Source: Escherichia coli (GTDB taxonomy: Bacteria; Pseudomonadota; Gammaproteobacteria; Enterobacterales; Enterobacteriaceae). From it: 64,000 nucleotides of DNA. Of this stretch, positions 24,562 through 27,500 are shown one piece after another; the stretch's first letter is position 1; each line of letters opens with the position of its first letter. Made by a program: the position numbers. Location of the stretch: assembly GCF_002854065.1 (NCBI RefSeq), contig NZ_CP024147.1; one strand, given 5' to 3'.

Positions 24562-27500
24562 TAGCAATGCGAATATTTGTCTACGGCAGTTTACGCCACA
24601 AACAAGGCAACAGTCACTGGATGACCAATGCCCAGTTACTGGGCGATTTCAGTATCGATAACTACCAGTTGTATAGCCTGGGCCACTATCCAGGCGCAGT
24701 TCCGGGGAACGGAACAGTACACGGTGAAGTTTATCGTATTGACAACGCCACGCTGGCCGAACTTGATGCCTTGCGCACCAGGGGCGGTGAATACGCGCGC
24801 CAGTTGATTCAGACGCCGTACGGGAGTGCATGGATGTACGTTTATCAACGACCCGTCGATGGATTAAAGCTAATTGAAAGCGGCGACTGGTTAGACAGGG
24901 ATAAGTAATAATAAAAGCACGCCACCTTCGGGTGGCGTTGTTTTATGCGATGTATCTCGCGATTTTTTTTTGTAACTTTTCCATCTTTTGCTTTTCTCTC
25001 CGAGCCGCTTTCCATATCTGCAATCGCATAAAAAACTCTGCTGGCGTTCACAAATGTGCAGGGGTAAAACGGGGGCACGCTTTGAACGGTGAGTATGAGT
25101 GAGGTCGGCTAACTTCCAGCAAGTGGCTATGAACAGCAAAATGGTGGTCGGGTTTGCTTGTTCTTACCGTTCAAGCCTTGCAACCGCTGAGAATAATGAT
25201 GGTGGAATAGAGAGTTTATTTATCGCGGGCATAAAAAAACCCTTACTAACCGAAGCCCGGCGTTCAGGGTTATTGCGCTAGAAGAACTTATTTATTCTTT
25301 GCGCGCTCGAAGGAAGCAACGATTTCAGCTTTAGCGGCTTCTGCGTTTTCCCAACCTTCAACTTTCACCCACTTGCCTTTTTCGAGGTCTTTGTAGTGCT
25401 CGAAGAAGTGAGCGATCTGCGCTTTCAGCAGCTCTGGCAGATCGTTAACGTCTTTAATGTGATCGTATTCTTTGCTCAGCTTTGTGTGCGGAACAGCAAT
25501 CAGTTTCGCATCTTCACCGGCTTCGTCGGTCATTTTCAGAACGCCAACCGGACGGCAACGGATCACAGAACCCGGCTGCAGCGGGTACGGAGTCGGGACC
25601 AGTACGTCAACCGGGTCACCGTCCAGAGACAGGGTGTGGTTGATGTAACCGTAGTTGCACGGATAGAACATCGCGGTGGACATGAAGCGGTCAACGAACA
25701 GTGCGCCGCTCTCTTTGTCGATTTCGTATTTGATCGGATCTGCGTTAGCCGGGATCTCAATAACAACGTAGATGTCTTCCGGCAGATCTTTACCCGCAGG
25801 GACGTTGAGTAAGCTCATGTCTGTTTCCTTTAAAAATATGTGGCAAACAAGTGCCGAGTATTATAGCCAACTCGCGCCGAATGTCTTCGCTTGTTTTCGT
25901 CTTCATTTTCCTTTTTCGCCAATTTTAAGACGGTATACAGAGCAGGAAAATCCATAACCGTAGCCGCATTTTTCATAGTGAGATGAAAGCGATTACAAAC
26001 TTGTGATTAACGTTTTATTTACTTCTTTGAAGTGTGATGTAACGCAATCCGTTACATAACGAATTGTCTATAGTTTTTTCGCGAACATCTTTTCACCAAT
26101 AATAATTACCCCGACGAGGACAACCCTATGTGGAAACGCTTACTTGTAGTCTCTGCAGTCTCGGCAGCCATGTCGTCTATGGCGTTGGCCGCTCCATTAA
26201 CCGTAGGATTTTCGCAGGTCGGATCGGAATCTGGCTGGCGCGCCGCAGAAACCAATGTGGCGAAAAGTGAGGCCGAAAAACGCGGAATTACGCTGAAAAT
26301 TGCCGATGGTCAGCAAAAGCAGGAAAACCAGATTAAAGCGGTACGTTCCTTCGTCGCGCAAGGGGTGGATGCGATCTTTATCGCTCCGGTGGTTGCGACT
26401 GGTTGGGAACCGGTATTAAAAGAGGCGAAAGATGCCGAAATCCCGGTCTTCTTGCTCGATCGTTCTATTGATGTGAAAGACAAATCTCTCTATATGACCA
26501 CCGTCACTGCCGACAACATTCTCGAAGGCAAGTTGATTGGTGACTGGCTGGTAAAAGAAGTGAATGGCAAACCATGCAACGTGGTGGAGCTGCAGGGCAC
26601 TGTTGGGGCCAGCGTCGCCATTGACCGTAAGAAAGGCTTTGCCGAAGCCATTAAGAATGCGCCAAATATCAAAATTATCCGCTCGCAGTCAGGTGACTTC
26701 ACCCGCAGTAAAGGCAAAGAAGTCATGGAGAGCTTTATCAAAGCGGAAAACAACGGCAAAAACATCTGCATGGTTTACGCCCATAACGACGACATGGTGA
26801 TTGGTGCAATTCAGGCAATTAAAGAAGCGGGCCTGAAACCGGGCAAAGATATTCTGACAGGTTCTATCGACGGCGTACCGGATATCTACAAAGCGATGAT
26901 TGATGGCGAAGCGAACGCCAGTGTTGAACTGACGCCGAATATGGCAGGTCCCGCCTTCGACGCGCTGGAGAAATACAAAAAAGACGGCACCATGCCTGAA
27001 AAGCTGACGCTGACCAAATCCACCCTTTATCTGCCTGATACCGCAAAAGAAGAGTTAGAGAAGAAGAAAAATATGGGGTATTGAGGGTTGCTATGCCTGA
27101 TGCCGATTCGTAGGCCGGATAAGGCGCTCGCGCCGCATCCGGCGGTGGTGCGCTGAAGCCTGATGCGACGCTTACCGCGTCTTATCATGCCTACTGGGAG
27201 CACGCTTTACACCGGGGGAAACCATGACGACTAACCAACACCAGGAGATCCTCCGCACCGAAGGATTAAGTAAATTTTTCCCCGGCGTCAAAGCGTTAGA
27301 CAACGTTGATTTCAGCCTGCGCCGCGGCGAAATCATGGCGCTGCTCGGTGAAAACGGGGCAGGAAAATCAACGCTAATCAAAGCATTAACTGGTGTATAC
27401 CACGCCGATCGCGGCACCATCTGGCTGGAAGGCCAGGCTATCTCACCGAAAAATACCGCCCATGCACAACAACTCGGTATCGGCACCGTCTATCAGGAAG

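Follow-up and report, generated by a model that had tools for sequence, protein, structure and literature searches.

What has become of the chpS-chpB (chpSB) toxin-antitoxin module in an Escherichia coli strain in which ytfP and ppa, the genes that enclose it in K-12, lie only a few hundred base pairs (bp) apart? chpS-chpB, also named chpBI-chpBK, is a type II toxin-antitoxin operon of the MazEF/PemIK family. The strain was examined over a 64-kb stretch of contig NZ_CP024147.1 (the window), in which the gene order is tamB-ytfP-ppa-ytfQ; coordinates are positions in this window and refer to the plus strand unless stated otherwise. An earlier inspection of the stretch, hereafter the sequence-only reading, had placed about 380 bp between ytfP and ppa and considered the strain to be without the module. 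The interval indeed measures 379 bp (24909-25287), and neither an intact chpS nor an intact chpB lies in it. Our answer, to which we assign a probability of about 0.9, is that these 379 bp would be a decayed remnant of chpS-chpB, which was destroyed by two deletions between direct repeats and then drifted.

The position of chpS-chpB between ytfP and ppa in K-12 is given in Table 1 of a review (PMC5120126). The K-12-type genomes agree with it and carry the operon at this position in an 886-bp ytfP-ppa interval, where chpS starts 211 bp past ytfP and chpB ends 79 bp short of ppa, the MG1655 sequence being 100% identical; the sequence-only reading had given this arrangement correctly. Alignment of the window with the K-12 ytfP-ppa region, which that reading had proposed, placed the module in K-12 and not in the window, and together with blastn delimited three collinear blocks shared by the two intervals. 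The first block (24919-25071) corresponds to positions 11-162 of the K-12 interval at 86% identity and covers the ytfP terminator and the ytfP-chpS spacer. The second (25081-25205) corresponds to nucleotides (nt) 19-145 of chpB at 72.4% identity over 127 columns (blastn E 2.3e-12), and the third (25200-25287) to positions 797-886 of the K-12 interval at 93% identity, comprising the last 11 nt of chpB and the chpB-ppa spacer. The window therefore resembles K-12 in that the chpB-derived sequence lies on the plus strand between ytfP and ppa, at the same site and in the same orientation, with homologous spacers on both sides. In contrast to the K-12 operon, it has no chpS, no promoter/operator, no chpB start and no chpB codons 48-114. 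According to the alignment, the whole of chpS, the gene for the AbrB/MazE-like antitoxin of ~83 amino acids (aa) that stands upstream of the toxin gene, has been deleted, and tblastn with K-12 ChpS gave no match in 24909-25287, its best matches in the window being spurious and located in tamB. Positions 163-211 of the K-12 interval, directly 5' of chpS, are absent as well. An open reading frame (ORF) of ~116 aa scoring above the cut-off of the toxin family is not found; codons 7-48 and the last three codons of chpB are left. This is a pseudogene fragment and not a module, and the strain is predicted to have no functional chpSB at this locus.

The chpB relic (25081-25205, homologous to codons 7-48) makes up about a third of the interval. 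Its local alignment with chpB scores 53 as compared with 9.4 ± 1.3 for 2,000 shuffles (z = 32), which together with the blastn match at a syntenic position establishes homology. ChpB residues 15-42 were also matched by tblastn to 25104-25187 with 50% identity (E 0.005). The frameshift-corrected translation matches NCBIfam model NF007320 for ChpB and no other, at positions 7-48 of 116 (E 0.0024), with a score of 17.9 bits against a cut-off of 129 bits and 228.7 bits for K-12 ChpB. In the chpB register, the relic reads FER followed by a stop, ..PASGYEQQNGGRV, and LLVLTVQALQPLRIMMVE followed by a stop. Because this register is spread over three frames, two 1-nt deletions causing frameshifts, along with in-frame stops, were recognized in the multiple alignment and the three-frame translation. 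The gene is hence disabled by truncation, internal deletion, frameshifts and stops, while the excess of change on the relic branch, the GC-to-AT bias and the lack of a conserved ORF indicate relaxed constraint. The interval thus appears to hold a dead, twice-deleted chpB fragment. The sequence-only reading had found nothing resembling ChpS or ChpB here and described the interval as terminators and unsupported ORFs only. That description holds for ChpS, the terminators and the ORFs, but it missed the ChpB-like segment, so that "only" has to be dropped. The presence of ChpB-like coding sequence, which had been named beforehand as grounds against the claimed absence, formally contradicts it, but this sequence appears to be non-functional, and the practical conclusion stands.

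A relic haplotype of another kind was seen in E. coli HH45 (L004 2370-2643, NZ_CP116411.1), in which a 101-nt patch is 100% identical to K-12 chpB, is preceded by ~130 nt of C/G-rich low-complexity sequence and is annotated as a PemK/MazF pseudogene by the Prokaryotic Genome Annotation Pipeline (PGAP). The patch probably arose as an artefact of assembly or polishing, or else by gene conversion, and the allele was not used as a missing link.

A chpS-chpB operon would formerly have occupied this site in the Escherichia lineage and have been reduced by two deletions between short direct repeats, as expected of replication slippage or illegitimate recombination. One deletion, of ~305 bp, would have removed the chpSB promoter/operator, the whole of chpS and the chpB start codon. 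Its junction (25063-25080) contains GGTAAAACG, a match to the spacer upstream (GGGGTAAAACG) and also to the start of chpB (ATGGTAAAG, or ATGGTAAAGCG in other Escherichia species). Both places have GGTAAA, of which the relic retains a single copy at 25063-25068. After this copy come 12 poorly aligning nt, the last 9 of which (25072-25080) have no match, and then TTTGAACGG, which represents chpB from codon 7 onward; we infer that the breakpoint lay within the repeat. The other deletion is an exact in-frame loss of 201 bp between 6-nt direct repeats. In chpB, TGGTGG stands at nt 140-145 and again at nt 341-346; a single TGGTGG, followed by AATAG, is left in the relic at 25200-25205. This would have eliminated codons 48-114, about 58% of the toxin, and the final three codons with the stop (25199-25210) read ATG GTG GAA TAG here as compared with GTG GTG GAA TAA in K-12. 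The sizes are consistent with these two events, as 886 - 305 - 201 gives 380 bp against the 379 bp observed. The remaining 125 nt of chpB would then have drifted, picking up substitutions with an AT bias, in-frame stops and the two frameshifts. Which deletion came first is inferred. In the usual model of toxin-antitoxin decay, the toxin is inactivated first, whereupon the antitoxin becomes dispensable and can be lost; the in-frame chpB deletion would be such a toxin-first step. The cell would be just as safe if the promoter, the antitoxin and the toxin start had all been lost in one deletion. Decay of chromosomal toxin-antitoxin systems is by itself an established pattern (PMC7167474).

A short interval might alternatively be the ancestral empty site, such that K-12-type strains gained chpSB by horizontal insertion and the window strain never had the module. 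Toxin-antitoxin modules are indeed often acquired horizontally (reviews PMC7167474 and PMC5120126), and the ytfP-ppa interval is a hotspot with genus-specific cargo in which many genera have only 93-190 bp. Such an origin leaves unexplained why a frameshifted, stop-containing piece of chpB lies at the syntenic position in the orientation of the K-12 gene, and it is also opposed by the direction of the substitutions. The relic is 71-74% identical to Escherichia chpB, as compared with 48-60% to chpB of Lelliottia, Enterobacter, Pseudocitrobacter and Kluyvera, and it possesses 14 of the 19 states specific to Escherichia chpB; it hence reads as a descendant of Escherichia chpB. When the differences between the two were polarised using chpB of these four other genera as outgroups, 28 of 31 were assigned to the relic branch and the other 3 to that of Escherichia chpB, with 2 more unpolarisable. 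Nearly all differences are thus derived on the relic branch, and 21 of these 28 changes are common to all four relic alleles examined. Changes from GC to AT outnumber the reverse by 14 to 5, lowering the GC content from 0.54 to 0.48. Such a substitution pattern appears as the signature of a pseudogene decaying in place, and the relic-branch changes together with the AT bias would exclude a short site that was never occupied.

The distribution of the module outside E. coli bears on the same alternative. In a YtfP scan using one genome per species, which gave 80 loci of Enterobacteriaceae (L005-L084), intact chpSB occupied this site in four Escherichia lineages, one of them E. whittamii, and also in Lelliottia, Enterobacter asburiae, an Enterobacteriaceae strain, two Pseudocitrobacter and a Kluyvera. 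The ChpB proteins of these non-Escherichia loci are 64-78% identical to that of K-12. Divergence at 4-fold sites within Escherichia is 0.15-0.21 for chpSB and 0.16-0.26 for the flanks, and between Escherichia and the other genera it is 0.54-0.66 and 0.42-0.47, respectively. The module thus occurs at this site in at least six genera with a synonymous divergence similar to that of the flanks, and since it tracks the flanks, chpSB would be an old resident of the site that was repeatedly lost. An empty ancestral site may apply to the family as a whole, and not to this allele, for which we regard it as highly improbable. The type strain of E. albertii (87-88% identity) and the divergent Escherichia genome L008 (96%) carry the relic itself, with the same junctions. 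Small fragments of a different kind occur in the ytfP-ppa intervals of Citrobacter sedlakii (ChpB-like, aa 63-107; L028 4430-4562) and Enterobacter cloacae DSM 26481 (ChpS-like, aa 9-31; L033 6100-6168), which suggests independent decay of chpSB at the same site.

The frequency of the relic was evaluated in 5,426 complete E. coli genomes. The relic segment was detected in 2,321 of them, with at least 99% identity to the window in 1,527 and 90-95% identity, the CFT073-like form, in 692, whereas chpSB was detected in 3,100. The relic is accordingly one of the two major forms of the locus in E. coli. Both forms occur within phylogroup B2, in which sequence type 131 (ST131) has a chpSB 99.8% identical to that of K-12 while CFT073 and Nissle carry the relic; alleles of the locus clearly move by recombination within E. 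coli. The gene esiB, whose product is a SEL1-repeat protein binding secretory immunoglobulin A (IgA), was present in 188 genomes, all of which also carry the relic. In CFT073, esiB lies between two copies of the ytfP-terminator hairpin, upstream of the same relic. These copies are diverged (ACGCCACCTTCGGGTGGCGT at L002 2334-2371 and ATGCCACCTGCGGGTGGCGT at 3990-4030). The window has no esiB, as its interval comprises 379 bp and one hairpin copy, while the esiB allele has a 1,473-bp gene between the terminator and the relic.

The same survey bears on whether chpSB was relocated to a place outside the window rather than lost. This idea draws on the facts that only 64 kb of the genome was examined and that three copies of chpSB in the collection are on plasmids. 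Within the window, tblastn found no further ChpS- or ChpB-like sequence. chpSB together with 100 nt of each flanking gene was covered to at least 80% in 3,098 genomes, and the number of full-length chromosomal copies, excluding the three on plasmids, is also 3,098. Because the two counts are equal, chromosomal chpSB always resides between ytfP and ppa, which in this strain is occupied by the relic. Relocation is therefore given next to no weight. The strain would make neither the ChpB endoribonuclease nor the ChpS antitoxin, a copy elsewhere being very unlikely from the population data.

Whether the relic still serves some purpose was considered from its secondary structure. The chpB fragment could have been retained for another role, either as a small RNA or as a structured RNA or DNA hairpin that, for instance, insulates the convergent genes ytfP and ppa from each other or terminates transcription between them. 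In K-12, chpB nt 19-115 (L001 2317-2413) form a long imperfect hairpin of -53 kcal/mol (z -2.5), which is kept by the relic (25081-25178; -47.9 kcal/mol, z -2.25) with many G-U pairs. The chpB genes of six genera largely retain this hairpin, which lies in the 5' third of the gene. In 11 intact chpB genes, its pairing is 80.7% as compared with 36-45% for slid controls, and its arms encode the conserved GDIVLVG and RPALVLS. The hairpin could be a conserved structure of the mRNA, could follow from the codons for GDIVLVG and RPALVLS, or could stem from quasi-palindrome-templated mutation. A decay simulation, in which the same substitutions were placed at random on the ancestral hairpin, predicted 27.3 ± 2.2 surviving pairs, while the window allele keeps 32 of 41 (P 0.03); a test on the minimum free energy (MFE) gave P 0.01 for this allele. 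The relic also diverges more slowly between species than the 4-fold sites of the flanks. These effects are nevertheless small, and the four alleles are not independent. The fold of the E. albertii allele is no better than that of shuffles (z +0.26) or simulated decay (P 0.2), compensatory double changes number 0 in 44 pairs among the relic alleles, and transitions from G-C to G-U keep pairs without selection. An Rfam scan of 24000-26200 at E ≤ 1 gave no match in 24909-25287, its sole hit being a sub-threshold S15-leader match inside ppa, and a promoter scan found no promoter-like site in the interval. Furthermore, the relic is disrupted without apparent cost in two strains, by IS1 at its stop codon in FDAARGOS_1250 and by replacement of its 3' part with a phosphotransferase system (PTS) operon in N50. 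With a z of only about -2.2, no compensatory changes in four alleles and no significance in E. albertii, the structured-RNA candidate was set aside, and a retained role is viewed as improbable.

The reading of the interval as a decayed chpSB remnant has to be weighed against several points. The relic branch carries ~22% change, while the relic alleles of E. coli differ by 12.8% from that of E. albertii and by 4% from that of L008, and for the same two comparisons the flanking genes differ by 28% and 23% at their 4-fold sites. These three measures do not fit one clock, and to reconcile them one has to suppose that lineages later exchanged the allele or that clustered changes came in an early burst; on account of this disagreement, dating the relic with a simple molecular clock was given up. 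More of the ancestral hairpin survives than random decay would predict, though by a modest margin (P about 0.01-0.03 in the window allele), and this fits pure neutral drift poorly. The exact breakpoint of the ~305-bp deletion is not fixable, because the 9 nt at 25072-25080 align with nothing, and the order of events is not recoverable. Lastly, the absence of chpSB from other parts of this strain is taken from the population, in which a location elsewhere appears very unlikely. Exchange of a small region between lineages is suggested by the relics of L008 and E. albertii, whose similarity to the window is much greater than expected from the 4-fold sites of the flanks. In the allele comparison of the window with L001, L002, L008 and L010, the ytfP-proximal part (24909-25071) was found to be unusually diverse, with 83-94% identity between alleles, while ytfP and ppa themselves are 95.6-99.7% identical.

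Both forms of the locus, chpSB and the relic, occur in E. coli and in other Escherichia species. It is conceivable, although we hold it to be rather unlikely, that they have long coexisted and been exchanged among Escherichia as a selected presence/absence polymorphism, or that the relic is kept for a hairpin role between ytfP and ppa. A polymorphism of this type might, for instance, arise if the benefit of ChpSB in anti-addiction or phage protection is traded off against its cost.

Three states of this locus have been published for 47 complete genomes by Pastorello et al. (2013, mBio, PMC3735183), the accessible part of which lists chpBS in 53%, esiB in 15% and neither in 32%. The window represents the "neither" state of this scheme. 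The same part of the paper describes esiB as flanked by short direct repeats with partial inverted symmetry, which is in line with the ytfP-terminator hairpin repeats that flank esiB here. It calls the genes absent and, in that part, does not mention a chpB remnant, whereas both the "neither" and the esiB states carry the relic in our data; a literature search for a chpB remnant gave nothing relevant. The presence/absence polymorphism is thus already known, and the anatomy of the relic alone adds detail and is not claimed as new.

A comparable case is known from another toxin-antitoxin system. Decay of the chromosomal ccdO157 system in E. coli was reportedly described by Mine and colleagues in Genetics in 2009. 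As far as the summary in a review (PMC7167474) and general knowledge go, ccdO157 is, like chpSB here, a chromosomal type II system at a fixed intergenic site, which is intact or degraded depending on the strain and is read as undergoing progressive loss. It differs in its locus and in its toxin, which belongs to the CcdB family, whereas ChpB is MazF-like.

The borders and the remaining features of the interval are as follows from the ORF list, the annotation and the scans. tamB (20785-24564) is followed by the left border, the ytfP coding sequence for a gamma-glutamylcyclotransferase-family protein (24567-24908); the right border is the ppa coding sequence for inorganic diphosphatase (25288-25818, minus strand), beyond which ytfQ starts at 26128 on the plus strand. 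ytfP and ppa are supported by RefSeq annotation as well as by the ORF list, and in the RefSeq genome that is identical over the stretch (strain EC1) no feature is annotated between them. The convergent terminators of ytfP and ppa would be what still works in the interval. Hairpins were found by both terminator scan and folding, in agreement with the terminator-like structures noticed in the sequence-only reading. The intrinsic terminator of ytfP (24919-24948) consists of an 8-bp GC-rich hairpin and a T tract, has a bidirectional form and is strong, as the fold of 24905-24975 reaches -24.5 kcal/mol (z -4.5). A second small hairpin followed by T9 (24946-24970) is terminator-like. The rest of the one-time ytfP-chpS spacer (24962-25071), delimited by blastn and alignments, has no significant fold (z +0.6) and no Rfam match. 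On the other side, the one-time chpB-ppa spacer (25211-25287) is conserved in all alleles and contains the likely terminator of ppa (25233-25271, minus strand), whose function is suggested by a hairpin, AACCCUGAACGCCGGGCUUCGGUUAGUAAGGGUU, followed by U7. This hairpin with its U7 tract is conserved across alleles and in other genera (Citrobacter and Raoultella loci), though its fold is not significant against shuffles and the simple terminator scan did not call it. The six-frame ORFs of the interval were rejected as genes, as the four relic alleles have none of them in common; the longest, of 60 aa (25099-25281), matches no NCBIfam model and is interrupted in the alleles of CFT073, L008 and E. 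albertii.

Other insertions were observed at the same place. In E. coli N50 (L085, NZ_CM165889.1 4492500-4536500), a P2-like prophage of ~36 kb is located at the ytfP terminator hairpin (window 24923-24937), which is duplicated at both prophage ends, and a beta-glucoside PTS/GH1/LicT operon next to ppa takes the place of the 3' part of the relic. Because the same hairpin flanks esiB in CFT073 and the prophage in N50, it behaves as a recurrent insertion or recombination point. In E. coli FDAARGOS_1250 (L086), IS1 is inserted exactly at the stop codon of the relic (window 25208-25216) with a 9-bp target duplication, and the interval is otherwise 100% identical to the window. Across the 80 species, the ytfP-ppa interval varies in length between 93 bp and more than 4 kb and is a hypervariable hotspot whose cargo depends on the genus. 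Citrobacter carries a TonB-dependent receptor and a YncE-like propeller. An Hcp(TssD)-fused protein accompanied by a small partner is found in Salmonella arizonae and C. youngae, methyl-accepting chemoreceptors in Pluralibacter and Enterobacter soli, and an uncharacterised pair of 194 and 156 aa in Enterobacter.

The relic allele is thus an ordinary, frequent and published form of the locus, in which a toxin-antitoxin module decayed by two repeat-mediated deletions, and beyond bookkeeping its importance is small. It presents a clean, datable case of such decay and a pseudogene that annotation pipelines have overlooked. A MazF-family pair of K-12 is missing in this strain, as in about 43% of sequenced E. 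coli, and statements on ChpB that are based on K-12, such as those from strains with multiple toxin-antitoxin deletions, persistence studies and cross-neutralisation with plasmid Kid/PemK, would not be transferable to it. The published "absent" state would be a scar and not an empty site, and the direction of evolution at this locus would therefore be loss rather than gain.

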